Assembly: GCA_964642015.1 (NCBI GenBank)
Contig: CAZXLF010000004.1
Span: forward strand, 20,738-84,737
Source of the DNA: an uncultured Planctomycetia bacterium
GTDB lineage: Bacteria > Omnitrophota > Gorgyraeia > 2-02-FULL-51-18
Reading direction: 5' to 3'
Length of the DNA stretch: 64,000 nt
Below the pieces are notes generated by a model. It had not been told where the DNA came from. It saw only the letters and a list, made by a program, of their open reading frames with translations, and made no database searches. Shown here in pieces: positions 23,661 to 60,123 of the stretch; position 1 is the stretch's first letter, and every line of letters begins with the position of its first letter. A program made the position numbers and the translations under genes.

Positions 23661-23707
23661 ATTGCATCCTTTCGGTTAATTATGATGACTTTAATAGATA
23701 AGCTACT

Positions 23708-26326: not shown

Positions 26327-26412
26327 GATAACCCTATTTTATATAAGAGTTTATAAACTTGAAATTATAGCACGGCTTGATGGTAAATAGAAAGAAAAGC
26401 GTTTGGGAAAAA

Positions 26413-29400
26413 TTAAGCGGCTTGTTCGATCATTTTCTTCATAAGCCGGAAGAATTTGACCGTCTGATCGATGGGGGCTTTTGTGATGGCTTTTAAAGCA
26501 AAATGTAAAACTGTCTCTATAGTTGCTTTTCCTTCCAATATCTGTTTCAACGTTTGCGTATCGGGCCTTTCGCCAGCCAACGTGGCATAAGCGTCATGGA
26601 ACCCTTCAGGAATATTCGCGAGGTCTATTCTTCCAGAATAGATCGAGACTTTCAGCAAGGCCCTGAAAGCAGGCACTTCGCCTTCTGCCAATAAATTCAC
26701 CGGCATATTGACGAAACCCTGCGTCAAACCTTTCTGAGCTACATCGATCTTGACATACGCCGCGTCTTTTAAGTTTTCCGGTATTTCAGTTATGAAAAGC
26801 TCCTTGGCTCCGGGGTAATTTAACGCCTGTTGGACCAAATGATCCTTACCACTCACCTTGAAGAAAACATTCTTGCCGTAATTTGATGTTTGAGCTTTCT
26901 TGATCTCGACGATCAGATTATCCAGATAAAACTGGAATGAAGGATTGTCCATCAGATCAAGATCGATTTCAGCGATTACGGCTTTATCGATCGAATTGGC
27001 CACGCCTTCCAGATCGGCATCCACTTTATTGTTCACAGCATCGACCATCGAACGAAGATCCTGAATGGTCAGTGCGGAATTAAATTTATCTGACTGTGGA
27101 ATTTGCGTATTTACCGCTTTCTTTGAAAGTTCAAGTTCGATCGGACTGATTCCTTTCGCTTCGGCGATCAATTTTGCACCGCTCCGTGACAACGTAAATA
27201 TATATGGCTCGTTTGTTTCCTCATTGAGCTGGAGAGATAATTTCCTACCGTCCACTTGCGGGAATGCGAATGCCACGCCCGAGAAAAATCCTTCAAGCTG
27301 AGAATGAATGTCCTGCTTCAAACCTGGTTTGAAATCCACGGTCGGCGTGCTGGCCAAGGGGATCGCATGAACAGTTGCCGGTTTTTGTTCCGCGAGCCTG
27401 GCCCCGCTGGTCGCATCTATATAATCCCTTTCTATCTCATAAAAAGCGGTGGAGTTTCTTTCGACCAAACTCCTGTAATCATCGATGATTTGATGACCAA
27501 AAGCTATTAATTCCCCTGTTTTACGGTAAAGCGATCTTCTGAGATAAAACCGAATAAGCCCGTTCAATCCGCTTAGACTGAAATCCGCCTCTTCTTCAGC
27601 GCGATCTCGCATGATCACAAATGTTCCGCGCAAGATCCTTTCGGCTGCGACAGGTTTTTCCGCCCAAACAGCGACATGCACAAAATCATTACGGCGTACG
27701 ATCAAATGGTGCAGATCTTCGCCAATACGCGGGTAAAGTCGGTCAACTTTAGCCGATCCGTCCAAAGCCTTCTCTGCGCTGACAAGAAGACTTCCCGCCT
27801 CAATAAAAAGATCCGGTGAAGTTGATGCTGATTTGCCTCTCACGATCACCCGCGCGCGATCGGCATATCCCTTAGCCACAAGATTATTTCCCTTGATCAT
27901 AAGAGAGGCTATTTGATCTTTATGAATTTCGCTGACTACATTTCTATCCAAAAATTCCATACCAAAACCTAAAAGCTCCTCAGCGTGCATTAAGTCATGA
28001 GTACCCTCAGATACGGGAATATCGATGCCGACATGCGCAGCCGCGACCGCTTGTGCGGCAAACTTAATGATCACCTGTTCAGATTCAGCTTTGACACCAT
28101 TTAAAGAATGATGCTCCTGTTCTAGCTGTAACAAATGTGAGAAAGTTTCTTCGGCTAAATGTAAACGATCATGAGCAACAAGATCAATGACCAAGTCACG
28201 TTGCCCGATGATCTGACGGCGCAATTCGTCTTCAGAAATTACCGGAGCTGCGGGCAGAGCTGAGACAACTGAGACAGGTTCAAGCGAAACCGTTTTTTCT
28301 ACTCGCGGTTTTTGCACAGCAGCTCTCTGACGAGGCGCGCCCGCTCTCAACTCCGCAAATTCTTGGCGCAATCGCTCGACCGTTGCGCTGACTTGAGCAG
28401 CGCGCTCATTACCTTTGGTGCCTAAAACTTTCCATACCTGATCGGGAGACAATGCCTTATCAGCCATCTCTTGTTTCATGATCCTGCTGATCACAGGATG
28501 ACTAACTTCTACACGGGGTCCGGAAAGAATTTCCCGGATCTTTGGATAAACAGGCGGCTGCTGATTTTTTATTGCTTGGATTTCCTGCTCTATTTTAGAA
28601 AGTGCTTCTTCAATAGCATCCAAACGATTCGCGATGATCTCAGATTGCCGCTCTTTCGAAATGCGGCCTGTTGATCCTTCCGTAATACCGGCTGCTTTGC
28701 GTGCCGTCTGGCCCATGCGCCAAAGTACTGCTTCCGTAAGCGTACCGCCCTGCGCAGCGGAACGGTCCGCGACGTTGATAATCGTCGGTTCGCCGCCTTC
28801 CGCCAAAATTTCTCTCACTAAACGTTCGGTTTCCAAACGATATTCTTCTTTTTTGGATATCGCAAGTCTTGCGCCCTTCACAGGCAATACTTCCTGTATT
28901 TTACTTACCGTCTTATTCGCATCGTTAATGGCTTGTTGATTGATAGATCTCAACACAGAAAAATTACGCAAGAAAACACGGCGTGACTCACGAAGTGCAA
29001 CCGACTCAGGTGATAACTCGAAAGAAGGGCTGAAAACCAGTCCTTCTTCGGAAAGCTGCCAGGAACCGGAAATATCGGAAACCGGGAATAGCACCTGAGA
29101 AACAAGCTCCGAAAGAAATTCAAAAGTCCCAAAATTCAGCTCATAAACATGCAGTAATTGATTGACCAAAATACGGAACGCTTCGGCAGTGATCTTAGAT
29201 GCGGTAAAATGCTCGATGGACCTTTTTTCGTCGTTCGGTAAAATATCAAATGTTCTTTGAAAATATTCATGCGCGATCACAAGCCGAAGAGCGTTGGGCA
29301 AGCTTCTCAGCACGTCCGAAGCGATATTTCTATCTATGACAATATTGGGTTCACGGAATATGCCCGGCAACAGCGCTTCTATCGAAGCAACGTGCGCTTT

Positions 29401-32400
29401 CACAAAATCTGTTATCGGGAAGACATTATTTCTCATAAGATTAAACAAAACATTCAAGCTGTCTTGAACTTCATCACTACTGACAGTGACCGCTTGAGTA
29501 CGAGGTACCTGACGCTCAAGCCAAAGCCGGTAATAGCTTTCAATCCTTTGATTAAGGGTCTCTGCGGGGAACTTTGTCAGATCGATCACGCTGGCTGCAA
29601 ATTCCATCAAAGCGATCATCCACATCAAGCCTTGATCGATCAGATAAACATCCTGCCAGATCAGATTTCCTATATCCGGCGGGATGGAAGGATTTTCCGA
29701 TAACCTGGCACCCGCAGGCATCTGCTCGGAAGATGGGCGTAAACGGTCCGTGTTCGCGTAAGGGAAGAAATCCGGTATCACGCCATTTTTAAGGTCTTCT
29801 TTGATGCCGTTCCAATAAGTATCTTTCAATAAATCCGCATGAACTTGTTTAAACGCTTCGACCAAATAAGGCGGAACGAATTTCATGGTTTCCGTCTCAA
29901 GAAAATCAGGCACAAACCAGTCGCTATCAGGAACATAGAACCAATCATCCAAATTCATCAGCTGGTCCGGATCATAAGAAGGCCACGGCGGTATGGACTT
30001 GAAGTTCATTTCAGGCAGGTCTTTCAGATGATCAAAATCATACAGCACAACTATCCCGGAAGGTGTGATGCCGAAATTCTTAAAATCAAATTCGCCTGTC
30101 CAAACACCGGCCGCCGCCAAATCCTTCAACGCATATCCAAAATCAATAAGGGCTTTTTTTCTGTCCTCATCTGTTCTGCCCGGAGCCTCCCAAAACACAT
30201 CGAACGGCGTGACCTGCCTTTGAACATAAACACGCTTCAATAAGACAACATCGCCGTTGACTATGACCATTCTAGGAGCCTTGCGGACCAAGTAGTCCAA
30301 TAGATCCGGCGGGAAGTTGGTTCGCGGGATCGAGAGATTTTGAAAAGACATCGCGTCAAGCATCCTTCCTACCCGATCCATATCATGGACTTTTTGATAC
30401 TGCTGCATAGTGAATGTGTGATCCTGGCGGAATGGATCTATCTTTTCTGATTCGTCTTTCATGATCTTGAAAACATAGGGAAAATGATCAATAGCCAGCA
30501 CTTCCATGACTCTGCCTCGAGTTCCGGGAGCAAATTTGAATTGCGTGCCGGGCACCTCTAAACGTTCATTCAAAGCCTTCCTGAATTCTGTTTTAGCCAG
30601 AGTCTCAAAACCTATGGATGAATAAATATCAGAAAGCGACCGCTTGGGAAGGATGGATTCCAAGAATTTGGCAAGCTCGCGGTGATGTTCCGCTTCCACA
30701 TGGAAATTGGAACGCACGTAGCTGAACAAACGGCCGACTTCCCCTTCTCCAACAAGCACCGTATCCGCTTCAACGCCGGTCTCTGTATTCAAGAAAGGAA
30801 TTGCCAATGCAATATAACCGTTTTGTGTCACGATCCTCCCGACAAGATACGCGCCTTTGTTTCTGTAGAAAATATTCGGAAAAAATTCTACCTTATATTC
30901 TCCGGGAATATTGTAACTCTGTAATTTCGATTCCAATTTGCGCGAAGCCAGCTGAACGTCTGAATTAAGATCGAAAAATAGGCCTTTGAATGGCAAGCCA
31001 TTGAAAATATCATGAAACAATTGATCAGTGGTTCCGCCAGCGGTTTTTTCATACGTGCGGTAAAAACCTGCCGGCTCGATAACATCGGGAAGTTCACCGT
31101 TACTCAAATATTCAATAGGTATATTTTCTTCAGAAAATACGCGCCTCATAACAGAATACAAGAAAATAAGTGCCAAATCGCTGTCGTAGCGACCTTTTAT
31201 CAGTGATGAATAAGATTTTTTAACGTCCTGCCACGAATCGTAATCCTTCACACGATCTGACAACAAGGTTCGCACCTCCCCTTCAACCCGATTCAAAGTT
31301 TCCCGATAAAACCGAAGTCTTTCATTGGCATCGCTTAACACTCCGTTCCATTCACGTTTTTCAAAACGTAATGCTGAACGGCCAGTGATCCACTTGAATC
31401 GCGAATAATAAGCTTCATAATCTTCGAGTAGTTTTTTAGCGACTTCATCGGAGTTTGCGGCGAGTCTGGCTCCATAAAACTTTTGTCGGAGATCCTTCCA
31501 ATACTGAGGATTAAGCAATGTAGTGCGGAATGTCTCACTGAAAACTGGTTTATACTTATCGGGGGCTAGCGCCAAGATGATATGTTCGGGAACAAAATCA
31601 TTCGGAGACGCTGATATCCAATCTTGATCCGGCACATAAAGGTCTGCGCCCTGACGCACAGGAATAGAAACAATTTCTTTGGGTAAAGATTCAACACCGT
31701 CCTCATGGTCATAATAGACCACTCGTCCGCTCGGAAGGATTCCGTAATTGAACAATTCAAGACCTCTTGGAAGATAACCGCTCTGCGCCAATTCCTCCAA
31801 TGCCCGGCCCAAATCAATAACAGCTTGCTGTTGTTTTTCTTCTGAAATTTGGGAATCATAAAGATAAAGATTTAATGGCGTCGCATACGGCTGAACGAAC
31901 ACATCCTTTAAGATCACCTTGTCACCGCTGACAAATACACTATTCGGCGCAAATTGTTCCAGTTCATTCAACAATTGCTCGGAAAAATGATCCCGTTCGA
32001 GCGGCAGTTGGGTAATGTGGAGCGTAGGCAAAAAACGAGGGTGATTGATCTTTTCGGCTTCCGTATATCTTGCGAGCACGCCATTGCGGCCGATAAAATA
32101 TTTTTTATCTGACAGATCTCTCGGCACTTTAAAAACATATGGCAATGAAGGCAACACGAAATCTATCATTGCCTTACCACGCACACCAGGAGCAGGCAAA
32201 AATCGTTCGGATAGATTAGACAATAAATGATCATACAAAGCCGGTATAAATATATTTTCTTTCAACTGACCAGGCTCTAACTTCACAAACCCCGGTTCGG
32301 CAAGCCTTGCGCCGCTCCGCCCCTGCTCTGCGATGATATGTTCAACGATATCATTTCTTGTCTCATGGATCTGATCGACCAGCAATTTGCCGTACGCGAT

Positions 32401-35400
32401 CGATAACCGTATCTCAAAACCTCCATCGATCAGCCCTGTAAAAATATTTGAAAGAATATTCAAATTTAAGCGAAGCTGATTCCCCCGCAATTCGGTCAAA
32501 GTTAACTGGTTCAGAACCTGAACAAGTCTATAAATATCCCTTGGGTTGACCGCTAAGTTAATAAGCCAGCTACGCGCTTTGTCCAATTCTAAACTGAGAT
32601 TTGTTAACACCTGAGCAGTTTCATTTGGAATAAAAGGATGCTGTAACAATATTCGTATCGTTCTAAAGTAATTTGAAGCCAAACTCAAACGCTGTCTTGG
32701 GCCGCTTAGAGGTTCTTCAGCCAGTCTTGCGCCTACAGATAAAGTACCTGCCAGCACCGGTAAACGATAAAAATCGTCGTCACTACGCAAGTTTAGACGC
32801 GACGATGCGATCTTTTCAGCGAGAATATTTCCAGTCTCAACGGTTGGTTCCGAGCTAGCCCGCACGATCTGTGTTTTTACCCTGCGCCCGCTGTCTGTTT
32901 TATTAAAAATGATCGTAATAATTACCTGCTCAGAATTACCCGGGATCCTTTCCCTGATAAGCTCCACTGTAATCGGAGAATTAGGTATCTTTTTGTCTAT
33001 CGCTAACCGAGCACCTTTAGAAGACGCTTCAAGTCTTACCTGTTTATATGCTCTCTCAAATACATCCGCCAGACCACTTCCAAGCGCAGAGCGGACTTTT
33101 TGAAATTCTTCCTCATATTTCCCTTCAGCGTGCGCAATACTCGAATGTTCAAAATCGATGAAGCTTACAACCGGCATTGTATTAGCATCGCGATGTACAA
33201 AGATATGATCTTTTTTGAGCTCAAAAATATCGCGTTTCGCTTTTCTGATCAGGTCCTGGTGTACTACACCATAATTGTGTAGTCTGCCCAATGCCAGACC
33301 AAGCGCTTCAACTTCATCAGCTGTGATCTGCACCGTACCTATACTAAAACCATCAACCTGATCTAGAATGATGGCTTCTTGATCACCGGGCAACCTAATC
33401 CGATCGACTCTTGGGCCTATGCTTTCAATACCCTGATGATAAGCGCGGTGAGAAGCTAGAAATTCGGTCTTTAATTTTTCTTCGAGACCCGTCCCGTAGG
33501 TTTTTATGTAAAAGACAATCTGGCCTTCGCGTCCTTCTATTCGGATCCTGTATTCCCAAACGGCATCATCGATGCGCCGTTCGGACAATTCCGTAATATT
33601 TTCCAGATCCGTCAAACCCAAAAATTCAAACACTCTTTGATTTCCGGCTCCGAACCGGAGTTTGAATAGATCCTTCGCTTCTTCCCCTTTAAGTAACGCC
33701 AAGCGCGCACCTGAGGTCATTTCGTCTAAAGATTGAAGCTGTGCCAAAGCGTTATACAGCAATCCATTTTCCTGAAGCAAAACCCTGGCATTAGGGTTTA
33801 CCAATCCGATGGTTGCGTCACTGGCAATATTCCCGATCAATTCGTTCAATTGCTGAATCCATTCACCGAGGCGCATGGATCTCTTCAATGTTGAACGGTA
33901 ATTTACGGCAAACTGTTTATAAGAGCGTCCTATATCACCGGCCAAAACATCGATCTGGTTCTCCGTCTTGACCAATTGAGGCTTCCCCTGGAGTCTAGTA
34001 AAAAGATATTTAGCTTCCTTCAGCCAATACGAGGCAACATCCAAGCGGACAGTATAAGCAAACTTGTTATTAGATTTTGATGCCACATCGGACCAAGCGG
34101 TAAAGACACCTGCGAAATCGGAAACAACATCAGCTTCAGAAGTTTTGGAGATGGATGAAACCCGCGTTCTCAGCAAATCCCATGAAGTTTTTAAATAGTC
34201 ATAGGCTTTTTGTTGGTCATTTTCATCGATAGCGTCTGCGGCTAAAATAATGTTTTGCCGGGCCGATCGCAGATCGCGGATGATCTCCTGATTATCGGTC
34301 TGTTTTATCAGTATCTGCGTAATCGCTGAATCGATCCTGGGCGAGATCCAAACAACGAGTCCGTACTTTACCTGATCAAATTCGTGTTCGCTTGAAAGCC
34401 GCGCGCCGACAGTGTCGTTAAATAGTTGGCCGGAAAAACCCGGAACAAAATCCGAAGGAATCCTGTAATTATGAATCGTCGGCGTCTGGAAAGGATTATG
34501 AGTTTCATTCATGATCGCAAGATTAGCCTGCCGGCGTAATATTGAGGCGACATCCGCCTCAAGTTTGGTGCGGACATCTAAATACTGCCTGGACCATTTA
34601 AAAGCGTGTAAAAATGTAAAATCTTCGACTCTTTTCCGATCGAACGAATCCACGAACGAGATGTGCGTGCCGCCTCTGAGATATTTCCAATAATTGGATA
34701 CATATCTTCTTGATTCCGCGGTCAAAGAAGCGAGCGCCTCTTTTTGATGTCTGGCCTCCGGAGATTCGCCGTTCGGGCCGGCTTCCTGTATTTTTTCTTG
34801 CAGTTCCGTAAGGCGGCCCATGATTTCATCCCGCGACAAAACATCAGGCCCTTTTCCGATCTGCGAAAGCCTCCACAGTACACGGTAGTAATTCACGACC
34901 ACGAGCGCCTTTAAATCCAAAGACGCCGCCAACCCATAAAGATCTAAAAAGATATCCAGATCGCTTGAGACACTACTGATATCACCAAAAAAAGCGATCA
35001 GTTTGTATTGCACAAGCATGTCTAGCTCTTTCCAATACAACGCGGAAGTCACCTGATCACGGTCCTTATGCGAACTGATACTTTCAAGGTCTCTAATGAA
35101 CTCTGCCAGGTCCTGTCGGTCATACGGTGTCGTGAACCGTGCGTCAGGAGCTCCGACAAGACGAACCAATTTTCTTTTGAAATCGTCAAAACGCTTTTGA
35201 TACCAGCTGACGATAAAAAGTCTTCCGGCCACTTCCGTATAAAGCAGATCTTCAGATGCCTGGATGATCTGCCTTTTAACATCGGAAGGTACAGAATCGC
35301 TAAATTGACGGGATTTTAGATATTGGTTCAATCTTGGTTTGATGAATTCATCAAGAGATTTGCGCACGGTTTCTTCTGTGTCCCAATTCCTAGCGTCCAT

Positions 35401-38400
35401 GGCAACAATAAGAACCGGCAATTCAAGCTTCAGAAATCCAATGAACGGTGAATCCGTCTGACTGATGCCCAAAATTAAATACAAACGAAGCCTTCCCAAT
35501 TGGGACGCCAAACGAGGTTCAGTGTCTTTAAAATACTCTTTTGCCTGCTGGATTTGCTGTTCGGTCGCAAAAAGTTGATTGTATGCAGGAATATTCCGAA
35601 GACGAGCCGGATCAACCTTTCTGACTCCCAGATAAACTTTGGCATCAGATTCTATCTTCCTGGCTTTCTGTGCTTTAAACGCATCAAAATGGTCCACGGC
35701 GTCCGCCCACTGACGGTAATAAGCCTCAAATTCTTGTAACCATGCCTCGACTTCCGTCAGCGCAGAACCATTATTTTGAAAGCGGATAAGCCGTCCTTTA
35801 AGCTCAGCGATATCGGGAACATTGCCGGCATCATATCCGGCTGTGATAAGAGCTATTCTGACGCGCTTTTCATTGGCTTCGATCTTTTCCATCTTCTGCA
35901 TCGTCTGCTCGAGGGACAAGCGCAACCATTCAGGGTATAGAGCACTTTCAGAAAAATGTTCAGTCGTTGATAGCCGCGCGCCTGACGCTGGAACATTTGC
36001 GCTCTTGCTGATCTTCAAACCTTTCTCTTCTAAAAATCTCCTTAATTCTTCCGGCTTTGATGTATTAAAGAAAAGAAAGAAATGATTTCGTCCCACTTCT
36101 TCCATGTTCTCAAGGCCGACGCGATCCATACTCACCGCACCGATCAGACCTTTTAACTGCATTTCAGGGATATTTCTTCTAAGGAATGACCGAAAAGCCC
36201 TGAATCTCATATGGGCATCGGTCACTTCAAAAGCAACATTCTCATTCTTGAAATAATGCAGCGCATCTTCCAGTTCATAATCAAGCTTCGCAAGATCCGA
36301 TTCTTTAAAACCGCCGGCGAATTGTCCCTGTCCGGATAGCTCGACATATTTTCTCGACGCATTCACAAGCCTTCTCCAATAATCGCCTTTGTTGATCCTT
36401 TCAAATATATTCTTTCCGTTTTCGGGATCATAAATCTTCCAAACAGCAACTTGCAGTTGCTCTGAAGCAACTAAACCTGAAACAGTTTTATAAGAGATGA
36501 CCTGTTTCCTATTCGGGTCATAACCTATCCGATAGATCAAACGCATCGCAGAATCGAATGAGCCGACTCCGTGAAGTTTTCTTCCGTTCTCTTCGACGGA
36601 ATTCTGATCGTCAACAATGATCGATTGCAACACCAATTGTTCGGCACCTACTCCGGTAAGGCCGGTGTAACGTTTTTTGTAGGGATCGATTCGTTGTAAA
36701 ACTTTTTTCAGCAGAACAATATCATCGGTGATCTGATGAGGACTCCCGCCCAATTTCCTGATCTGGCTCATCTGATCCTTAAATAAATCGGAATACAACG
36801 TCCGGTTCTTGCCTATGGTCAACTGGATTTTAAGCGGCTTCTGAGCAGAATTCTTAAGCTTGATCGTGACCATCCGACCCAACGCATTAGCTTCTTCATT
36901 TTTTTGGATCATATCCACGTGATAACCTAAATTTCCGAATGACTCTGTCAATTTTAGAATGAAAAGAGGCAGATTATGCTCATAAACAGACCAGAACCTC
37001 TCGATATCCTGATCATGATCAAAAAGCAACGCAAAATCAAAATCCGCGTTATCATCGATGAACGTGCTACGTCCCCTGGATCCTGTCTGAATAAAGCGAT
37101 GACTGCCTGCCACGATCGATCTTAATGACTGATCTAGCGCCCGAACAACGTGCCTATTCTTTTGGCGATAATCCGCTGCAAGTCGAGCTCCGGAAGCGAC
37201 CAAAGTAACTGCGCCTTCAAAATCCTTACCCAATCCTCTTAAAGGCACTTGAATGCCATTATCCAGAATGATCACACCATATTTTTCTGAACCGATTGCT
37301 CTGACTTCATATCTAAAGAAAACACCTTCTGTTTCGAATGTTTTGCTGTCATTTTTAAAAGATATCTCGATCTTTATCCGTTGACCTTTTTCCAACAAAC
37401 CGGAATTTTGGACAACAGCGGAAAGATTGAGCGTCGGATTCGTTTCTGCTAAACGTGCGCCGTTAGCTTGAGGGCCGGTTTCAACAATGTGCTTCATTTC
37501 TGCTAAAAACCATTCTAATTCGTCGAGCTGCTGGTAGTTTGACGCGATAACAACCGTGTTTTCTCTGGCGTCTAAAACCAGATCATGCGCTCTATACAAA
37601 TAAGCCTTGGCCTCTATGATCAGTTGGTCAGCTTTTTTGACATCTTGAACTTCAATAGCTTCTCTTAAAACGGGAATGATCGACTGGAATGCTTTTAACG
37701 GTTCAAGATAGTCTTGCGATGAAACACTAGCAGAAGCTGGTTCATCCAAATTTTTTTCTTCCTCTGGCTTTGGTAAATACCCTAAACTCCTGAGTTCCTT
37801 CTCGTATTTTGTTTTTTGCGAAGGAGTTAATTCTGCCAAAGACGTAGAACCGACCCACTCAAAATTTCCTTCAGCAGTTTCATAACCGCGGCGAAGGATC
37901 GCTTGGGGCATAAAAGAATTGTCGAGAACAACTATTTCAAGTCCTGGCCGTGGTATAGAATCATGTTCGACGTTCACAAACCGAATCAGCAATGGTTTTT
38001 CATGATAAGACAAAGGTGTGCCCACATGAACTCTTTGTCCGTTACGGTCATTCAGAACGTGCGTCGGCACGCTATCTTGTCTGCGGCTGCGACTCGAGAC
38101 CTCAAGAACAGACTGTTGTTTTGCCTTGGATACAGCAAAACTTCTAAAACGTCTGGTCGCTTCTTCCCAAGGGCGCTCAAGCTCATGGGTTTCGGGATTG
38201 TAATATTTGCTTGAGATGAATGCCCTATTCTCTTTTTCTTTGGATGTAAACTTGCCGCGATTGGCGTCGTCATCTTTGGTCCGATAAATATCAATGCGGG
38301 ACACTTCGGCCTGAGAGTTGACAATGATCACTTCCGAGGGTATCTCATCCAGTTTTGCGCGAAATTCATCTCCCAATCGCAGTGCGATACCTCGCGTCAA

Positions 38401-47400: not shown

Positions 47401-50400
47401 TCCTAACATCCATGCGTATATAAAACGGATCCCGCCCTTGCCGGGCCCGCGTGCAATATTATGAACATCGCGAATGAAAAGAGGGTGGACATCAGTCCCT
47501 AAAATGTTGATCTTTATCTCAGGCTGGAAGTGATTGTAGAAACTTCTAATATAAGCATCGTCATCTTTCGAAAAGTTCCCGACATCGATCGCTTTTTCAA
47601 TACGGCTTTGGGCCGGGGTCGCACCTCTGGTAACACTGGACTCTCCGAGAAAAGTATGCAGGAACGGGTTTTGGTACCTGGGATCCAACTTTAAAGCTGC
47701 AAAATTTTCTTCACGGATCCCAAGTTCATTGAGCTTCCCACGGGCCTCATTGATCAGAAGGATTGTTTCTTGTGTATCGCGAACGGATAAAAACCCTCGG
47801 CCCTGTTGATTTGGAACGACGCGCTTTCTATAACCGGGAGGGAAAAGATGAGTAAGATCGTTCTTTTTTAATTGAATATCAGACAATAGGTCCAGAAGGC
47901 CCCGTTCTATGCGGACATGATGCATCTCCTGCTCGACCCCTTGTCTGTCATTAATACTTATATAAAATACGTCGCCGCCATAGAGCGCGCTCAAAAGCGC
48001 GTCGATCAGCACATATTGATCCGAACCTTTTTCAGGAAAATGTCTAACAATCTTGTCGATACGTTGGACCTCAAAATGCGGACTCTTCCTAGCCGCCAGA
48101 CGTGCGCCGTTGCTGGGCGCTTGAAAAATCCTGGGCGGATTAACTGATCTGTCCAATTCATCATAGATCCTAAGCGCTTCAGATCTGACTTGGCGGATGA
48201 CCTTTTTGTTTTCCAAGTGATCTGTACTGATCTCGTGCAGTTCAAGCATTTCTTCCATCCAATCACGGAAATGGTCCCCACGGGCGAGACCATTTACAAA
48301 AAGCGCCTGCTCATCAGCGGAAAGCAGTACCTTTCTGCCTTTTGCCAGCGGAAGCATGCCGTGTCTCAGATCATAAAGCGCTTTGATAAACTCGTTGTAA
48401 CGTGTCTCACGCAAAAGCGTTTTCAAAAAAACCAAGTAGCGGTGTGTAATGATCATGCCTGAATCGACGCCGCGCAGCTCGGACAATAATTTATTGATAT
48501 CCCGATTGATCCTGATCGCCAGCATAAAATCGCCGAAAGCAAGCGCGCGGTTCACCAAAGCGCTGGCTTGCTTGTCAAGATCAACGATCCTGACGCGGTC
48601 TGTACGGAGCGTTTCGTCGCTGGCGATATCTTTTTCCAGCTTTTTGAAATCCCGACGGAGTTCCGATCTTAATTTAAATAATTTCCATTCCTCGGATATG
48701 AGAAGAGGGATCTGTTTCTTCCAGAAGAGCCATCGGAAATACGGCACCTTCAATTCATCAGGTTTTTTGGCTTCCCAATTCCGGTCAAAATCATCCAAAC
48801 GCTTCTGGATCTCATTTGGTTGAAGACCTTGACGCATCAGCAAATCATGGTAGTTGTGCCACTCTAGAGAATAACGCAGTACAGACCCGGCAATCTTCGC
48901 TTCCACCTCATTTTCCATGTTGAGTTTTGCAAAGTAAGGTACGGGTATATAAGTCAAACGACGAAGCTGGCTGTTCCTGACAATGCCGGCCTGATAAGCC
49001 GTCGAAAGTGTCGGACCCAAAAGATCGGTCTGTGTGAAAACACCCATGATCATCAATGTCTTGCGCGCGTCCGGCGGAAAATATCTTTCGATCAGATAAT
49101 CCACATTGCGTTTGGCTCTGAGGTATAAAGCTTCTTCTTCGGCTGTTAAACGGGTGAGGGGCTCATTTTCATTGAAACGAATGCTGTATTGATTCAGATC
49201 ATCAACGATCAGGGCTTTATCAAGACGCCGTATGATACTTTCGATCTGACGGTAAGTCTGGAGATTCCATTCAAAATAAAGATTCGGATAAAGATAACTG
49301 ATAAAATCAAAACCTGCCTCAAAACGCGCCGTGAGAGATCTTGTCGATTCATTTGCAGGCTTAATGGCCGGCAGCGAAATGATCTCGTATTCTTTCCAGT
49401 CATCATTTTCAGTCAATTGGCGAATGCCTACCGCATAACGGCGCCGTGCTAACCCAAAACTTCCAAAAAATAAAACAGCGTTGATCACGTTGTTATTGTA
49501 TGGGGACATTCCGTTGGTCTTGAACCGGATCTTCTCGTACGGAGTTGAGGTCAATCCAAACATGAGCAATCTGCTATACATTCTAAGTTTGGAAAAATAT
49601 TGGACCATCCATGACTCTTGAGACCGGCCATTAGGATTTGGTTGATTAGGCGCCGATCCGGAAGCCAACCGTGCACCAGCCGAGGAACTGATTTCTCCTT
49701 CAAATATTTTAGCGAATTCTCGTCCTTCAAGTGTCAATACATAAAGATTAGAAGACCTGTCGGCTTTTTTTCGGTCTCTTGCCTGCTCAATCCGCACAAA
49801 AAGTTCCGCGCGGGCCCGTTTCAGCAAACTTTCTATTCCACGCTCGCCAACCCCCGCCAAAAAGGGAGCGGTATTTAAATCCTGTAAAGTGAATACGCCC
49901 TCTCCATGCTGTTGTCTCATCCACACCAGCAGCCGTTTAAAATTTTCGCTAAAAGTCGGTGGTACATTGACAGCGCGAGGAAATGAAGCTGCGATTCGCT
50001 TGCCTTCCTCTGTCAGCACATATCGATCTTCGCCTGTTAAGGGATCCGATTGAACCGCGGCGGTCAGATTTTGTTTTCCGGTCCTCTCGAACCATCTGAA
50101 GCTCGGACTGATCCCTTGTTCATACAAAGCTCGTCGTGTGAATGGTAAATCCGAAAAACGGTTTGCGACCGCATGAAGCCAGTGATCAAATCTTCCTACA
50201 TATTGCTTCTCGACGGATACCCTTTGTTTTCTAACACCCAAATCTTCATAGTCAAAATTCGAGTTCGCCAGAAGATCATAAAGCGCGGTTACTGTAAATG
50301 TTCCTTGCGAAGCATCGGCTACTTCCTGCAACGTCGGTTTATATTCCGCTTCGCCGTGCGCGGTAGCGATATTCTCTGAGATCGCTTTGACTTGTTTAGC

Positions 50401-53400
50401 CATCGCATCATATCTTCTGGGATCTCGAATACCTAAAACAGCATAAGTAACAGAATGGGCCCGCCCATACGGCCCATTAACAAGCGTATAAATATTTTTT
50501 ACCGTGATGCGTCCACTAGATGCTTCGGCAACTTCGCGCACCGAAGGCAAATAACCGGGATCATTTTTTTCTGAAACAAGCTGCGCAGTGATCCTTTGAA
50601 TATCGACGACCCATTGCTCGGGAGCTTTCGCCATTCTAATTCCCAAATCTTCTTCAGGATCGATATGAACGCCTTTTGCGCGGTAACGGTACAGCAAAGT
50701 ACTGAGACTGCCCGTCGTGATTTCTCCTTCTGATGCTTCTTCGATTTCGACCGGCGTCGGGCGGTAATTGGGGTCACCTTTTTCCACGGCTATTTTCCTG
50801 GCTATTTCCCTGACACGCTCAACGATCTCGGCTGCCTGGACTCCTCGCATGCCGACAGAACTATAGGTGATCCCTGCTGGTTTAAGGCGATTGAAGAGCC
50901 TCCAGATGAATTTTGTATTCACTTTATTATCGGATGCTTGCACGATCTCATCGATAGTAGGCCGATAATCAGGTTTGGATCTCTCATGTCGGATCTGATC
51001 AACCAGCGTTTTCAAATAGTCGATCCATTCAACATCATCATGCATAATCCCAGAGGGCCCCGTATTTGGAGCGTAACCGTAAGGAATTTTGTTATCCGAC
51101 ATCGCCAGGATTATCCGCCGTTCCGTAAGAGGATGAGCATAACGCTTGGAAACCTCTACAACACGGCCGGGCGTAGCGTTTACACCTTGCGGCACTTGAG
51201 ATGCAAGCGCATTGAACAATCTGATCCACTCTTCACGGCTTTTATTCGCTTGAGCCAATACCGCATCGACGGCTTGATCATCGCTGTTGAATTTATACTC
51301 CAATTTCTGCGCTTCTTTTCTGAATTCACCGCGCGCCGCATCAAAACCCTCTCTGTCAACCTTCGCAATAGCTTTCGAACCCAGGTCAATATACTTTCTC
51401 AAAGAAGCATTTTCTTGCGTAGCACCCCCGACATTATGCTCCGAAGCCCAATGAAGAATATCGGCGAGCCTTAATTCGTCCTCGATCATGGTGTCATACA
51501 TGATCTTTCGGGATTCATATTCGGACACGATGAACTGAAAATTCCTCAATTGGGCAAGATCAAACAAGAGATCAATGACTTCCGTTTCTTGCGCATTGAA
51601 TGATGCATCAGGGCCCGTCTGACGTTCATGCCGCACTGAAAGGAATTCGGCCAATTCATCAGGAACAAAGCGCTCCAAAAAGGTATTTCCTTCCAAATGA
51701 TCCATGCCCTGGAAAACGCCGGGAAAACTTCTCCTTGCCGTGCGTGCCTTGACTTGCTCTTCTACGGCGCTAAGCCTGTTGCGATAGGTGCTCAAGATGA
51801 CCAAGCCCGCGACGCTCTTATTTTCATTGAAAACCTGAACCTCCTTTTGGGCAGCAAGAGATTCATCCAATTTGATATCGTACCCGCGGGTTCCTACTTG
51901 CGCGACTATGGTGATCGTGAACGGTTCGCCGGTCCTGTGTAAGTTTTGCTGATCAGCTTTATTATTGAGACCTGTCACAGTTCTGACGGACGCTTTAGTT
52001 TTTAAAAACGGTTTCTGTTCGTCCAGCTGCAGCAATAAACCCACGATTTCTTTGGCTTCTTTCGGTGTTTGGCAATTCACGATGATCGGTTGCCCTGTTC
52101 CATAGATCGCCGAAACAGCCGATACAAGATCGTTGATCTTTTTATCCCGCGTAAGATAATACCGATTCGGCCAATTTTGGCGGTTATCCTCGTGTATACG
52201 CTTGAAGTCTATGAGCTTAAGTCCGTAATATTGGATCAGGAAACCTCTCGTGAGATCATCAGCAACTCCCGTCACTCCGCTTACGAAACCAAAACGGTTA
52301 TAGGCATAAGCCATTGTGATCAAAGATAGTGGCCGGCTTTCTAAGCGGACGCGGACCGCTTCATTTCTCTTTAAGCTTTCTTTGGCCTCGATAAAACTCT
52401 GAATGCCCAGCTGAAGACGCACTTCATTCTCCAGTTCTCCGGTAATTCGATTACGCAGTATGACTAAACCGTCCTTGACGACATAATTCACGTCATCGTT
52501 GTAAATTGCATAAGCAACCATGGCCGCTTGAAGCAGTTCCGCCACATTGGCATGACTCAGAAAATCATTCGCTTTTCCATTTCCCATGTGAGACTTGAGC
52601 GCAGGTTCGGAAGTCCGAAGCAGATTTTCGAAAGCGGCCATAAGTTCGGTATTCTTACGAGGAGTCAACACAACGCTTTCGCCTTTGATAACGTAATCTT
52701 TCGGCGTAATATTTGCTTCGAGAAGTTGATAAGCTGTTTTATAGAATTTTTCAATTTCAGGATGTGCCGGCCCCCAATATTCGGATGAGATCTGCGGTTG
52801 ATTTAGAACGCCGAAAAGAGGTGTATCCGCCTCTTCTATGAATATCGCCGGCTGAGAAGGATGGATCTTGTTTTTCCGGGCCTCGAACCAATCCTCTCTC
52901 CAATAGTGAGTAAGCTCCGAAAAAGGCCCGCATACGATATCTCCGTCATGGAATGCCTTTGAAATCGATTCAAATCTATCGGTAGTTGCATCGCCGTTTT
53001 TTACACTTTCTAAATGCGGATAATGAAGTGTCCCATTCTTCTTGGCCACAGTCCCTTCAAAAGGACGCTTATTCAGGATCGCGAAAACCCGCAAACCAAG
53101 CGGAACCATAATCACGGACATTAGCTGAGAATCTCTGGCGGTAAGACCGTTGTCCCAATCATGTACTTCTACTTTCGTGTCGTTCAAAGCTTTAAGATAA
53201 GAAGCGAGCGCTACGGTAAGAGTTTTACCTTCGGATGTCGGCATGATCACCAATTGATGGTTCTTCAGCAAAAGGATCGCGGCCGCTATCTGATTCTCAG
53301 TCGGCGAACCCCCAATATGGGCGGCGATCAATGAATTAACGTTCGGATCATGCGAAAAAGATTCTTTTTTGGAATCAAATTTTACTTCGTTCATATCAGG

Positions 53401-56400
53401 GCCTCGCAGATCTAATGATTCGCCCCCATTCTGAACAGTCACAGAATAATTCTTAGGAAGATCCGAGTAGACTATTTTTCCTTCTTTAAGGATCACGGTG
53501 GCGCTGATCTTTTCCGGCAACTTCAGCAAAAATCGGGTGTGAGGAGAAGTGATCCTGGACGTCCGTTCACTGAATAAAGCAATGGCCTCGGCCAACCCGT
53601 CCTCATCCGGTTCTTTGCCTCTCCAAATTGCCCTCAAAGCGACTCCTTTATCCAGCAACGCTTTGTCTGTTTGCCCATGTAGGGCTTTCTCATAGGTCTT
53701 CGCTTTTTGAATGATACGCTGTACATCTTCTTTCTCCGCCGGAGCTAAAAAAACTTTTTCGGGAGCAGCATGGCCAGTCTTCATTTCTCTTGCTATGTCC
53801 GCTTTCAATTTTTTAGATAAAACTGAAATGCCGTCTTGTGTCAAATGCTCTTCGGATATCTTTCTTGGTGCATTTTTTGCTAGTCTTGCACCCTCATTTT
53901 TAGCGACCAGCCGGTCGAGTTGATTTTGAATAGACTGGATATCATTAAGGAGGCGCTGTTTCAATTTTTCCTTGGACGTCGGCGAGTTAAATAACCGCCC
54001 GGCTTTGACCATTAACTCCAGCCGGGAAACAAGAAGAGGGTTTCCGGAAGAATAAACTTTCGTGTTCGTTTCATTAGGCAGATCAACATTGAATAAGCCT
54101 AATTTAACGGTGCTTTCGGTCACTTCGTTCGTCTGATCATCGAAACGATAAAGATAATAAACATCAGAGTCTGGTCTGCGTTTGACAACAACAGCAATCC
54201 CTTGAGGAAGCCTGCCGAACGCCACAAACTCGGCCTGATTCATATCTTCCACATCTTTTTTCAGAAATGCATAATTTTCTCCGATATTGATCGAGCCCTT
54301 TTGCTCTATTTCCGACCGTTTATTGACATGAGAGATCAGGAATTGAGCCGCTTTCTTTTGATGGGCCAATTGCTTTTCAAATGTATCGAATGGATTGAAT
54401 GGAGAAGCATTTTCTTCCTCATGAGCTATTGTCGCAGTAGCTCTCCAGATGATAAGCTGTTCGAAACCGCCATGCGAAAGCCACCAATACGCTCCGCCGG
54501 CGGCTAATACAAAAACACTGATCGATATCAAAAAAACGCGCTTAACAGTATTCCTAGCCAACCGAGCGCCGAGATATCTTTCAAATTTTATTACCAAATC
54601 GAGTGTCAAAGATTTCCCCTGCAATTGAAATAAGTGATCCTGGGCTTGATTCAGTTGTTGATCCGCGTGACCGATCCATGCTTTGACTAGAGCAAACGTA
54701 TCCAATCCTTGAATATCGGGAAAGATCTCGATTAACGTTTTAAAAAGATTGGGCAAGAGAATGGTCATTAGCTGGATCGAGTGAATATCATGGGATAAAT
54801 TCATCAGAGATCGGCTGAATACATCGAACGCTACTGTCGCAGGCAGTTCGGTCTTCTTCTCACTCAGTGTTTTCAGAACGGACTGAATGTCGTTGTTGAT
54901 GCGATCGATGCTTTCAAAATAATGATGAACCAGTCCTCGCGAGCTAAGTTTATAAACTAAATCCATGAAACTAAATGCGCTACCCACATGCAACGTGAGA
55001 TTCCCTTGCAACATGTCACGCATTTCTTTTTCATTTAAGAAAGATCTGGCCTGGCTCAAATATACAGCAGCAGAATCCACAGAAATTCTTATATTGTCGA
55101 TAAGCTTACCGGCTTGGCTTAGTAATTGTTCTTTATTGAATTCTCCGCCCGCTAAACGCGCGCCGGAGGAAAAATCATTGTTCTTAACTATAATGTTGTA
55201 CCCCAGCCATGCGGGCTCTGAGCCGCCGGCCTGCGCGTTGACTGTGTACTCATTAACACCTTTAGGAAGTCGGTATTTAAATCGGATGCTGGGATGATCT
55301 TCATAGGCTTCCACAAACGTAGCGGGATATGACCCCCATTCACCGGGCAATTGATTGCCGGTATTATCAACTCTTGGATGATAAAACGTAAAAGCGACTT
55401 TATGCGCATCCATCTTTCTATCAAGATTGACGGTCCAATAAACTTCTCCGTTCTGATCGGGAGTTTGCGCACCATTTTCCAGTTCGGGCCAAGGGTTTCC
55501 AAAACTTCTGATCTCAGCGACGTCCACGACCCCGCGCAAGTTGGTCAAAGCCCTCGCCAAACGCGACAGCGGTCCATGCAACCTGAGCAATAGATTCCGA
55601 TCGTCCATGGAAAGAGAAGCGTCTTTGTTGATTTGCTCTACCACCTGGTCAATCATGGTCCTAGAGTCATGAATAAGATAGGCGTATTTGTCCCTGAAGT
55701 ATTTGTCCGTGAATTTGGCATCCTGCGGTTGGGCCTCAATATCTTTGGCCAAGTCATCCAATTGGTCCCAGGTCTTCAAAATGGGCATTGTGATATAAGG
55801 GACGTCGAAAATTTCGGCGGTCGCATTTTTTCTGGTTTTTAATATGGATTCTATTTCTTCATAAGCGCCCTTCAATATTTCTCTGGCATAAGAAGCCTTC
55901 TGCTGCAGCGATCTCGGCTGCTTGAAAAAACGCCGGATATCCAGGCCTTTTCCAGGAAAGGTCACTTGGATAAAAATAAACCGCTCGGTATCCTTTTTGT
56001 AAAAGACAAGCCACGATCGGCGGGTCATATTCAGCGGCGCTTCTTTGGATAAAGAGAATCTCGAAGCGACTGATTCCGGGATCTCGAATATCAAACCAGG
56101 CCTGTTGCGATAGTTTGTCGCGTCATGGTGAACCAACGCATCAGACAACGGCCTCCAAACAGAACTTTCCGCTGAAAGAACACGGTGATTTTGGAGAATG
56201 CTGTTCAAATTTTTTGATTCGCGATCAAGAGAGATCCCCATGTATAGATTTTCGGACCGATTGGAGGGATCTAGATATTCTGAATGTTCATATTCTTCGT
56301 AATGACGGATCAGATTGTTCACTGATTCCTGTGAATCGATCACGGGAGGAGGAGCAAGCTCCTCGTCACTTTCTGCTGCTGCCAAACGCGCACCGGACAA

Positions 56401-59400
56401 AACCGGCAGGATTTGATGAGAACGGCGAATAATGATTTGTTTTAAAAATTCTTCATCGCCGGGCTTGATCCGGTCTTCCAATCGTCGCTCTACAGTTTTT
56501 AATTCAGCCTCGTTCTCGAAATAAAATGGCTCATAGCCATTCCGAATCAGAAGGAAATTCGCCAACAACCAAGCCAAACGATGATGTCCGCTCGCCGCGT
56601 TGCTGAGCGTGTCATTTCCGCTGGATTCTATGATCTGATTAAATCCGGGCCTTCTGAAAAAAATCTGATACGCGGCGATATAAGCATATAGTTCTGCCGC
56701 CATATTTGGCGCACGATCAGGCTCTTTAGAAGTTTCGTTGACCAGATAAACGAGTGAATTATAGGGCCAAGCCATCCTGAGCTGTCTTTGATTGCTCTGA
56801 AGATAATCAGGGTTGGTGTCATCACCGCGAAGCTTTTCATACAATGTCACTATCTCCGGCCAGGTTATGTCTTGGATCTTTTGATCCGCATTGGTTCTAA
56901 CTAAAAGAGAGTTTAAATAGTTCACGGCTTCCAGAAAATGCGGATTGCGGTTGTAAATTTTCTCGGCATCGACCGTAACCTGCCCGTTTGCCAAACGAGT
57001 GCCTTGTGCAATGATCCGGTTTGATGCGAATTCAAAACCTTTTTGAGTCAAAGCATATGTGCGGATCGGTACCGTTTTCATATGCTGATCCACTGAAGGA
57101 ACAGCCCTGATCGCTTTATGCGTGACATCCACGAGATCGATCCATTCGTTTTTCAGTGCTTGCGATAATGCCTCCTCAAAACTCAAAGTAATCAAAATAA
57201 GGTTAGGCTGGAACAGCGTCCCTACGACAGCACTTTGCCGCACTAAACTGATCACAAGTTTTTCGGCGGTCCACTGTGTTTCTGTCAACCTAGCGCCTGA
57301 CTGACCAGCCGATGCACCGTTTTCGGATTGGCTCCTGTCCTGTGTCGTTTCCGCAAGTGTCAGAAGGTCACGAAGCTGCTGTTCACTGAAAGGCGTGATC
57401 TGTATGTCCCTATTTTCCAAGAGGCGTTTTATATCTTGGAAAGCCGCGCGATTCAAATCTTCTTGCCTGGGTAAAAGATAGAAATGCACATTGAAATCTT
57501 TTTGCAGCTTGTGCAAACGAGACAGCGCTTCTTCATTTGCGAAAAAATTCCTCAAATCGTTCAAATCTCGGTAAACCAGTTCCACAAAACCGGCTTTTTC
57601 CGGGATTTGAGCTGTGGACCATTCATGTATATACACGCGTGTGCGTAATTCGTGTGTTGGTTCCAATTCTTTGACCGGAGACAATCGGTCAGGAGTGATC
57701 GAATGCAATACAGCCAGATCAAGCGGATTTGCGCGATGGATATCGTCCAATAACTGCAGGATATGTCTGTAATTTAAATTTTCTTTTAGTTGTTCGGCAT
57801 TATAGTAAATATAGTGGCCGTTATTTGAGCCTGTGTTCGGTCCTCGGATAATTAAAAACGGTTTTTCTTGAGAGCCGATCTCGAAGGTCTCGCCCAAATC
57901 GCCAAATTTATAGGTAACGGAATTATCGGATACAGCTATAGCTCTCACCTCTCCTGTTGCCTTCGCTCGTTCAAGATGAGCAACCAAATTTTCGATTGGT
58001 TCCGCCGATTCCGCCAGCCGAGCGCCATTCCTTTGCAAGAATGAATTCAGTTGATCAAGCGCTTTTCTCAGATAACCATCGTCACCGATCAAAACTAGAT
58101 GTTCTTTTTTTAGAGCATGCGCATACTCATCTGTCATCAGACGTTCGACAATGAAGTTAACCTGATAGTGAATACCTTGCGCCATATCGTCATACATAGA
58201 TTCGGTGGCTCTGTGTTCTTCGTAGTCATCGATCAACTCCTGAAGCTGATGGCGCAATGTTTCCAATTCAGCCGCGATGGGCGCCGTCACCTGAACGCCG
58301 GACCGTTTAAACGCCACAAGAGCCGCGGATAATTGATCTTCTGCCGATTCCAAATTCGACAAGGGAGGATTTTCTGCAAACCGCGCTCCGGTCGGTTTTA
58401 AGTTCAACGCGCCAAATTCATTTTTAAGCATCTCCACAACATTTAATCTCACGCCATCTACCAAGGCTGTCGCTTCGGCGGCCGGCAGAACACCCCATTG
58501 ATCACGAGGATGCTCTGTGGAGGCCGATTTTGTACTGTCTGGCTGATTTAACAAAATATCTTCGTACTTCTTTATGTTAGTTTCCTGAAGAACTTGCGGG
58601 ACAATCGAAACATATGAGACGTTCCGTTCTTTAAGCAACGATTTCAGATGCTCGGTATGATAGCCGCCGGCGACTAGGACGGCTTTCTCGATTTTTTCCT
58701 CATCCATTTTTTTAAAAAGATTTTTCAGGAATGCTTCGTCTCTTTGCCTTGTGAGAGCATAAAATTCGGTGGCTTTTTGGAACGCCTCATCGTAGCCGGC
58801 ATCCAGGAAAAGAGCGTCTTCATAATGAGATGCCAGATCCATGATCTTTTTATTCAAGAAACCGCTGATTTGAATGATATTAAAGCTCTGCGGATCTTGG
58901 TCCAGTGCTCCGAAGTCCTGTGTGGTGAGGTTTAGATTAAATAGGCGCTTTAAAATTTCACAGCAGCCGTCAACCTGATGAAGTCTTTTTTCATCCGCGG
59001 TCCTCGCCAATGATTCATAAATCAATGATTCTAGGTTTTCTTTCTCTATGATGACTTTCTCGGGATTTACTTTTTCAGCTTCTTTCAGATAATCGAAATA
59101 TTTAAAGAGTTCGGGATATTCGTGAGCATTCTTGAGCTTCTCTTCCAAAAGCGCATAGAACGCCTTGGCTTCTTTGTGCTGGAACGCATCGATCGCAAAC
59201 GGATTATTGAGACCCTTCAGGTTTTGTTCGGTGAGTTCGACTTGATCTGTCTGAGAAAGTGATGAAAACGCTTTGATCTGTTCTTCGTTGGCTTTGCTAA
59301 AATCGATCGCAGCTTCTTTTTCTTTGATCTTCTTAAGCGCCGCCAAATAAGGGAAAGATTCAACAACATTCAGACCCATCTTCCTTGCTTCGTCGTTCAG

Positions 59401-60123: not shown

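Follow-up and report, generated by a model that had tools for sequence, protein, structure and literature searches.

The 64,000-nt stretch of contig CAZXLF010000004.1 analysed here (the window) contains one giant gene on its minus strand. The 11,236-residue product is built from a conserved N-terminal region (the head), a string of enzyme-bearing segments and a conserved C-terminal module (the tail), and 30 copies of a five-residue motif, G-A-R-[L/F]-[A/S/T] (GARLA for short), mark the junctions between the segments. It can be regarded with high confidence as one intact gene from an Omnitrophota bacterium, and as the longest member found here of a family of head-and-tail giant proteins. The original prediction had recognised a single giant open reading frame (ORF), and this is borne out by the presence of only one stop codon and by the reproduction of both gene ends in independent run assemblies. 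The organising features that it overlooked are the GARLA junctions, the conserved head and tail, and a purge of cysteine. Taken as a whole, the protein is best explained as a head-and-tail cargo-carrier polyprotein that would be cut at the GARLA junctions, an explanation held with evenly balanced confidence.

The start codon is TTG (60121-60123), preceded by a Shine-Dalgarno-like sequence, and the sole stop lies at the end of the frame. Gene calling on the Logan assembly chooses the same TTG. A weak promoter-like site is present upstream, and the GC content along the gene stays between 0.42 and 0.48. Assuming ~5.5% stops per random codon, an open frame of 11,236 codons has a chance of ~e^-630, which upholds the earlier statement that such a length is essentially excluded by chance. 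Independent support comes from Logan assemblies of two sequencing runs, SRR12313480 and SRR12313478. One Logan contig is 100% identical over 18,531 nt to window 17796-36326 and holds ilvD and the last 4,185 codons of the giant gene, and other contigs of the same two runs hold panE and its first 769 codons. The independent support covers both gene ends, and the middle (~aa 770-7050) lies outside its reach. This middle is where an assembly chimera or collapse, or a set of several independent genes with internal starts and lost stops, could still be placed. The same artefact would be favoured by the relatives P0002 and P0003, in which the head sits on a separate ORF, and by L034 and L038, in which the frame breaks shortly past a junction. 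Against it, the 33.7 kb contain no stop, all other frames being closed (their longest ORF inside the gene is 178 aa), and the two ends are identical in the other assemblies. No DNA repeat longer than 31 nt was found within the gene, so a collapse or chimeric join is unlikely. Moreover, the family head and tail lie exactly at the two ends of one ORF, homologs of 4,000-7,836 aa have the same layout, and composition is uniform and cysteine depleted along the whole length. An artefact is extremely improbable.

The motif G-A-R-[L/F]-[A/S/T] occurs 30 times in the giant protein against 0.8 expected. For exact GARL the count is 29 against 0.40±0.61 in shuffles, for GARLA it is 23 against 0.04, and GARL is by far the most enriched 4-mer of the protein (P ~1e-43). 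The motif is absent from the other ORFs of the window (11,318 aa scanned). All six Arg and all six Leu codons occur at the junctions, and selection therefore acts on the peptide and not on the DNA. This codon diversity, together with the lack of long DNA repeats, led to the rejection of a repeat or recombination site in the DNA as the origin of the motif. None of the 30 junctions falls inside an independently defined domain (P ~3e-5 to 3e-4). Disorder-promoting residues are over-represented in their flanks (z=5.3), and the predicted local distance difference test (pLDDT) score is below 50 beside a junction in both AF2 models. With its 30 copies the chain falls into 31 segments, which are 65-1,405 aa long, and enzymes fill single segments. 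Junctions 6069 and 6234 bracket the GNAT acetyltransferase (165 aa), 9271 and 9551 a kinase-only copy of AceK (280 aa), and 9551 and 10138 a complete AceK unit (587 aa, against 578 aa for E. coli AceK). The kinase-like modules, each with GARLA at its two ends, occupy segments of 230-281 aa, the glutamate dehydrogenase (GDH) domain lies in one of 731 aa with junction 4737 placed 16 aa past it, and the SecA-like motor and its helix-turn-helix (HTH) repeats make up one segment of 1,405 aa. A recurring junction motif between folded units, as expected of a polyprotein, is thus present.

The motif is a property of the family. It is carried by more than 40 relatives, and in 22 of the 27 relatives of at least 2,500 aa the top 4-mer is this motif or one of its lineage variants (GARM, GTRL, [AG]SRLA, AARL). 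In each of 20 full-length tail-bearing proteins it is found 5-29 times, and the pooled logo of 245 sites reads [S/A/N]-G-A-R-[L/M]-[A/S/T]. Segment homology to relatives starts at the junctions and at different positions in those relatives, which indicates that the segments are shuffled cassettes. The AceK segment matches relative L026 from residue 1 at 66-72% identity, and the segments that begin at 6966 and 3483 match elsewhere in relatives L026 and L031.

The head follows an N-terminus that looks, from its residues, like a cleavable signal peptide; in homologs a small-aromatic-Ala sequence is kept before N/A-P-D/E at the putative cleavage site. Residues of the head that are invariant or nearly so are Q89-D90-A-H92, E120, G171-V-E173 and G486-G-x-H489. 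They reproduce the acid-x-His...Glu...His motif of the TIKI/TraB/EreA/ChaN superfamily with a two-His, two-acid site in which the first acid is Asp. The catalytic reference for the TIKI superfamily is a 2His/2Glu motif (PMC6254334). The His-to-Glu spacing is 28 residues (H92-E120), as from H3902 to E3930 in RRSP. Pfam and Foldseek applied to the head did not detect the TIKI/TraB/EreA relationship, and there is no Pfam TraB, Tiki or EreA match. Membership of the superfamily is moderately supported by the motif and a putative fold, and the head is a candidate hydrolase. The TraB/Tiki-like domain that had been placed after the anchor is counted with the confirmed domains at this moderate level.

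The relatives of the tail were found by exhaustive HMMER search; word-index queries with either the tail or the SecA region gave nothing useful. The tail is present in 68 cluster representatives, in each case at the very C-terminal end, in proteins of up to 7,836 aa. Its first 28 residues past the last GARLA are disordered and are followed by a compact alpha/beta domain. The C-termini of the family end in a helix and then ...[Q/R/G][A/S]A-COOH, which in the giant protein is EQAA (last 15 codons 26416-26460). In several members a GARLA-like string stands ~13 or ~31 residues before the C-terminus. The end of the chain could serve as a tag that a protease, an unfoldase or a secretion system recognises. 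Among 20 full-length tail-bearing proteins, 13 also have the head motif. Tail-bearing proteins without a head include P0083 (2,769 aa), P0028 (7,836 aa), P0027, P0036 and P0033. P0083 has a signal peptide at its start and, immediately past an AAARLA junction, an AceK-like module, which shows that the family has AceK cassettes more than once.

The family shares a signal-peptide-like N-terminus and head, a variable cassette string, an -[A/S]-A tail and almost no cysteine. The giant protein shows each defining feature: the head pattern QDAH.N...E...GVE...GG[YF]H, the -[A/S]-A tail, junctions of the form [GA]-[AGST]-R-[LM]-[AST], and cysteine below ~0.2%. Complete members range from ~1,570 to 11,236 aa, and the product described here is the longest found. 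Pfam gave no match at all on five small complete members; the cargo in other members includes RmlD/epimerase, NAGPA, alpha-amylase and HATPase domains. The head occurs at 22 loci among GTDB species genomes, and at 20 of these it forms the start of an ORF that extends beyond the locus (at least 3,860 aa wherever 10 kb is available). All 17 named loci belong to Omnitrophota metagenome-assembled genomes (MAGs), including Ca. Taenariivivens, which through these relatives supports a probable Omnitrophota origin, in line with the earlier suggestion. The NCBI names of closer head relatives are also Omnitrophica, with one MAG labelled Planctomycetota. Closer heads, with up to 70% identity, are present at 70 JGI metagenome loci, and some contigs hold three such genes. 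Contig Ga0247727_10000187 (143 kb) has three separate large head-bearing genes (L031, L055 and L058), so one genome can have several paralogous carriers.

Two kinds of broken layout occur among the relatives. In P0002 and P0003 (ERZ1426835 and ERZ1426824) the head is a separate ORF of 701-885 aa, and a large cut-off ORF follows or overlaps it. This second ORF has at least 6,417 aa in P0002, with Laminin_G_3, PGM_PMM, FHA, Glyco_transf_5 and ROK domains, and at least 3,116 aa in P0003. The separate head ORF is either a natural split or a frameshift. The identical relatives L034 (11146-11236) and L038 (4354-4444) stop 25 codons past a GARLA, and an ORF of 1,210 aa that overlaps by 90 nt carries on in a different frame; the frameshift may stem from sequencing or be programmed.

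The giant protein has 6 Cys in 11,236 residues (0.053%), compared with 0.90% in 25 flanking genes, a 17-fold depletion. Cysteine amounts to 0-0.18% in relatives and 0-0.5% in the 20 full-length tail-bearing proteins. In the AceK cassette, other residues take the place of all seven E. coli AceK cysteines that the alignment shows, and the purge is accordingly a property of the giant proteins and not of the enzyme families.

The description of the chain as a mosaic of enzyme domains stands in most respects, since 13 of the 15 domains listed earlier, and their order, are supported by hidden Markov model (HMM), PDB, paralogy or fold evidence. The membrane-anchored reading is upheld too. Transmembrane (TM) segments were called from a hydropathy scan, which gave the N-terminal signal/anchor and one clear internal helix, not numerous TM helices. 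The SecA-like motor, GDH, alpha/beta-hydrolase, GNAT, kinase-only AceK copy and full AceK unit are each confirmed by HMM or PDB matches. The motor matches Pfam SecA_DEAD (1e-18), PPXD (2e-6) and NBD2 (1e-7) and PDB SecA (2e-21), with Walker A MPTSEGKT, a Walker B-like IEEAD, and motif VI GTRGYDI / ARTARRSFPG. The SecA helical scaffold, wing and C-terminal domains were not detected, and the Pfam and PDB alignments stop at NBD2, around SecA residue 550-587. Internal repeats and paralogs were sought with sequence chunks and Smith-Waterman windows. The block of ~260 aa described earlier as repetitive proved to be four tandem HTH-like units with the consensus Y-x-P-[TS]-x-x-E-[IV]-x-x-A-S-x-G (Smith-Waterman score 156 against a null of 34±5). 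The GDH-type domain, aligned to Thermotoga GDH, has RGPGKGGIRF, LPYGGAKG, DIPAPDMGS, GLGGVG, EGANG and NAGGVTVSFYEWQQN with two insertions. The catalytic Lys motifs and the dinucleotide-binding domain of the Glu/Leu/Phe/Val dehydrogenases are both present.

The three kinase modules are mutually paralogous (25-31% identity) and have FYxKxY, ALGRLH..G..HxDL and FIDF in common. The second is the most canonical, with FYxKxY, ALGRLH..G..HRDLxxxN and FIDFE, and it gives weak Kdo, Choline_kinase, APH and Pkinase matches besides Bud32. The presence of three kinases thus holds, on paralogy and the Bud32 matches, and their earlier assignment as specifically APH-like does not; they are rather Bud32/RIO/Kdo-like. 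Two listed domains were not confirmed. The putative nucleotidyltransferase (NTase) is recognised by the motif TGSRGRSTFIDDNADFDF near aa 7680, and its cassette (aa 7645-8047) has no HMM or PDB match. A second HTH-repeat set between kinase 2 and the NTase found no support in profile scans or Smith-Waterman windows. The complete AceK unit aligns with E. coli AceK (3eps) residues 9-569 at 7e-75 and retains the P-loop, K336, D371, N377, K461, N462, D475 and D477, with D457 changed to Glu. The kinase-only copy shares 31% identity with the kinase portion of the complete unit; the equivalents of D371, K461 and D477 are substituted, and on these replacements the copy is probably degenerate. By alignment, catalytic motifs are retained in the SecA-like, GDH and AceK units. 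About 70% of the giant protein has no family match in profile scans. Whole-protein Pfam scans found no condensation, adenylation, carrier, ketosynthase or acyltransferase domain, and a nonribosomal peptide synthetase or polyketide synthase megasynthase was rejected because none of their domains is present.

Table 1. Features of the giant gene and of its surroundings in the window (aa, residues of the giant protein; positions, nucleotides of the window)
Feature	aa	Position	Strand	Basis or remarks
Giant ORF	11,236 codons + stop	26413-60123	minus	ORF listing, translation
Shine-Dalgarno-like GGGGGA		60127-60132	minus	4 nt upstream of the TTG start
Signal-peptide-like N-terminus	1-44	59992-60123	minus	Basic stretch, hydrophobic helix aa 23-41, S-Y-A then N-P-D
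Head, TIKI/TraB/EreA/ChaN-like	45-578	58390-59991	minus	Alpha/beta core, ~300-aa helical insert
Junctions G-A-R-[L/F]-[A/S/T] (30)		27391-58389	minus	15 nt of the junction with Gly s: (60112-3s) to (60126-3s)
Junction Gly, first part	579, 700, 943, 1244, 1654, 1852, 2078, 3483, 4006, 4737			
Junction Gly, middle	5049, 5164, 5445, 5510, 6069, 6234, 6464, 6966, 7555, 7645			
Junction Gly, last	8048, 8573, 8805, 9037, 9131, 9271, 9551, 10138, 10417, 10907			
Internal TM helix VFLISISVFVLAAGGAYWWL	1862-1884	54472-54540	minus	Directly after junction 1852 and basic R-N-T-V-K-R
SecA-like motor (NBD1, PPXD, NBD2)	2265-2819	51667-53331	minus	Pfam, PDB, alignment
Four tandem HTH-like units, ~68 aa each	3028-3300	50224-51042	minus	Smith-Waterman
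GDH-type domain	4217-4721	45961-47475	minus	Pfam 2.5e-45; PDB 2tmg 2e-36
Kinase-like cassette 1	5164-5444	43792-44634	minus	GARLA at both bounds; paralog of cassettes 2 and 3
Alpha/beta-hydrolase	5793-6015	42079-42747	minus	Abhydrolase_1 2e-9, FrsA-like 5e-6, PDB MHETase-like 3e-9
GNAT acetyltransferase	6080-6218	41470-41886	minus	Acetyltransf_1 2.4e-11; fills 165-aa cassette 6069-6233
Kinase-like cassette 2	6234-6463	40735-41424	minus	NCBIfam Bud32 4.9e-8
NTase-like cassette	7645-8047	35983-37191	minus	Motif only, TGSRGRSTFIDDNADFDFALLF at ~aa 7680-7701
Kinase-like cassette 3	8805-9036	33016-33711	minus	Bud32-type matches 2e-4; paralogy
AceK kinase-domain-only copy	9306-9549	31477-32208	minus	Pfam AceK_kinase 2.6e-41
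Complete AceK unit (regulatory + kinase/phosphatase)	9561-10128	29740-31443	minus	Pfam 2e-66 / 1e-64; fills 587-aa cassette 9551-10137
Tail, ends ...KKMIEQAA-COOH	10907-11236	26416-27405	minus	Conserved C-terminal module
tRNA-Pro (TGG)		1427-1503	plus	Only RNA gene in the window by ARAGORN and Rfam
Split transketolase		1516-3362		
Glycerol kinase		7029-8519		
Bat-like cluster		10598-18688	minus	BatD 3.9e-39, TPR proteins, MoxR/ChlD-type AAA ATPase
korA-like 2-oxoacid:acceptor oxidoreductase alpha		61391-63154	plus	1e-201

The neighbouring genes are housekeeping genes: ilvD, panE, korA, a split transketolase, glycerol kinase, a Bat/MoxR cluster, D-Ala-D-Ala dipeptidase and PgeF. The flanking genes named earlier are confirmed by the Bat-like cluster (BatD, TPR proteins and a MoxR/ChlD-type AAA ATPase), the split transketolase and glycerol kinase. 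Only 86 nt (window 26327-26412) lie between the stop of the giant gene and the start of ilvD. No minus-strand terminator-like site was found after that stop, and the giant gene may share a transcript with ilvD and further downstream genes. A 286-aa minus-strand ORF (61337-62197) that overlaps the korA-like gene has no family match and is probably spurious. There is no isocitrate dehydrogenase gene within the window.

For the cargo-carrier polyprotein, the proposed mechanism with its cleavage, as read from sequence features, is given slightly less than even confidence. One chain would be translated and targeted to the membrane by the signal peptide and the TM helix right after junction 1852. 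Cuts at the GARLA junctions in the disordered linkers would then let the cassettes act as separate enzymes. The candidate protease is the conserved head, which is the only hydrolase candidate in cis and whose predicted fold and catalytic residues match those of TIKI endopeptidases such as RRSP. Handling of the chain at the membrane would fall to the SecA-like ATPase beside the TM helix. Where the cargo would go is a separate question. The reading leans towards export, or transfer into a partner or prey cell by a MARTX-like logic, at a probability well below even. The lean towards export comes from the Cys purge, the signal peptide, the conserved termini, the rapid cassette shuffling and the effector-like cargo (kinases, acetyltransferase, NTase-like unit, hydrolase and AceK). 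Alternatively, the cargo may act on the producer cell's own cytoplasmic face. The boldest form, in which these are true bacterial polyproteins with up to ~30 enzymes that would be cut by the TIKI-type head or a co-evolving trans protease, and in which the cysteine-free cassettes (AceK, kinases, acetyltransferase, NTase-like unit, GDH and others) would be exported via the SecA-like motor and the -AA tail and used as effectors in a host or prey, is distinctly unlikely.

Several observations weigh against the cargo-carrier polyprotein. No protease domain was found in the giant protein by HMM, and a C39- or CPD-type cysteine protease in cis was rejected because there are only 6 Cys and none is conserved. 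No secretion-system or protease gene is adjacent to the giant gene in the window. The cargo enzymes need ATP, NAD(P) or acetyl-CoA, which fits the producer cytoplasm and another cell alike. The basic residues lie on the N-terminal side of the internal TM helix and give no consistent topology; as they precede the helix, a simple stop-transfer reading is disfavoured. Some relatives have a GARLA-like string inside the folded tail. Finally, distant head relatives in GTDB (22-27% head identity) have no enriched 4-mer. A junction motif common to all head-bearing proteins was rejected on this result, and the role of the head is not limited to cutting GARLA, since the head is kept in relatives without an enriched motif.

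Some of the same evidence serves a different reading, in which the chain is never processed and forms a beads-on-a-string array on the inner membrane of the producer, with cytoplasmic enzymes and with GARLA as a hinge or docking motif. The kinases, AceK, GDH and GNAT need cytoplasmic cofactors, the only membrane segments are the signal/anchor and one TM helix, and profile scans found no protease. In addition, a 2026 preprint gives the same 'membrane-anchored cytoplasmic domain' topology for TM-only giants (10.64898/2026.06.07.730766). However, a five-residue motif with lineage variants, conserved in more than 40 relatives, is not required for a plain hinge, and the 17-fold Cys purge of cytoplasmic-type enzymes is left unexplained. 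The conserved terminal modules and the cassette shuffling resemble a carrier-and-cargo design instead. An unprocessed array is somewhat unlikely.

The surroundings of the TM helix bear on one more possibility, that GARLA and the -AA C-terminus are targeting or handling signals and that the SecA-like motor or another unfoldase threads the cassettes stepwise across the membrane. GARLA stands immediately before the signal-anchor-like helix (GARLA-RNTVKR-VFLISISVFVLAAGG), the SecA-like unit retains the preprotein-binding domain and ATPase motifs, and the C-termini are stereotyped (...QAA/SA), sometimes with GARLA ~13 residues from the end. On the other hand, most members, including five complete small ones, have junctions and no detectable SecA-like module. 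To our knowledge, no known Sec signal resembles GARLA, which also counts against this reading, and stepwise threading is very improbable.

Giant genes make up a sizeable share of very small Omnitrophota genomes, and domain catalogues alone have given no testable mechanism. GARLA at the cassette boundaries between a putative hydrolase head and a tail turns the matter into a testable question, namely whether the chain is cut, at which bond and by what. The junction motif is also a simple rule to segment giant proteins for structure prediction. A role in interfering with the regulation of central metabolism, either in the own cell or in a partner, is suggested by the Cys purge and by the cargo of AceK and kinases. 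If the proteins are uncut, the head, tail and junctions still define a coherent family within an otherwise unannotated length.

Among known single enzymes, E. coli AceK (3eps/3lc6) is matched end to end, and the substrate-recognition-loop region is alignable. In contrast, the unit here forms a single cassette within a giant protein, comes after an additional, probably degenerate kinase-only copy, has Glu at D457 and has its cysteines replaced. The motor resembles SecA in the order of NBD1, PPXD and NBD2, in Walker A, in the acidic Walker B-like motif and in the motif VI arginines. It differs in having ~22% identity, Ser in place of the Walker A Gly, and EEAD instead of DEVD next to a shortened stretch, and in lying 400 aa past a TM helix within a larger protein. 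Compared to the TIKI/TraB/PrgY, EreA and ChaN superfamily (RRSP, HopBA1, EreC), the head has a ~300-aa helical insert and its first acid is Asp, not Glu.

Giant membrane-anchored Omnitrophota proteins have been reported by West-Roberts et al. 2023 (10.1101/2023.11.21.568195) and Nielsen & Lui 2026 (10.64898/2026.06.07.730766), with lengths of up to 85,804 and 147,155 aa. Together the two preprints describe divergent SecA_DEAD and PPXD without scaffold or wing, GNATs, tiled enzyme domains and possible C39-mediated processing, and the second defines a 'multi-enzyme' class and a SecA_DEAD architecture cluster. The protein described here shares with these giants the phylum, a single long ORF, the signal peptide or TM anchor, SecA_DEAD and PPXD beside a TM helix, GNAT, many enzyme domains tiling the chain, and the lack of Pfam matches over most of its length. 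The novelty claimed in the original prediction was thus overstated, as the kind was already known from the two preprints and 11 kaa is not exceptional. At 11,236 aa the protein is small for the class, above the 10,000-aa threshold of the Nielsen & Lui catalogue and below the class of at least 30,000 aa of West-Roberts et al. It has one internal TM helix against 'numerous', and its cargo is of a regulatory and central-metabolic type, with AceK (one and a half copies), GDH and three Bud32-like kinases in place of glycosyl-transfer or dockerin content. A term search of both preprint texts found no AceK, glutamate dehydrogenase, TraB, polyprotein, linker or cysteine, and the junction motif, the head and tail definition and the Cys purge therefore appear undescribed; a limited literature search likewise gave no description of the motif. 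Four traits appear new: the junction motif, the shared head and -AA tail, the cassette shuffling and the near-absence of cysteine.

For MARTX toxins there is no homology, and no Pfam match to RTX repeats or to the InsP6-activated cysteine protease domain was found in the giant protein. The junctions here read R-L-A in contrast to a small-Leu-small site, and a signal peptide and an in-cis SecA-like motor are present here instead of type I secretion. In MARTX toxins, effector domains between conserved termini are freed by cleavage after Leu in unstructured inter-domain segments (PMC2900308). The giant protein resembles them in being a giant chain with conserved termini and shuffled effector-type enzymes that include an alpha/beta hydrolase and a TIKI-type domain, putative here (PMC2900308, PMC6254334). 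Both have unstructured linkers with a recurring Leu-containing site, which is cleaved in MARTX and is predicted to be cleaved here. The MARTX toxin is thus the closest functional analogy to the giant protein.

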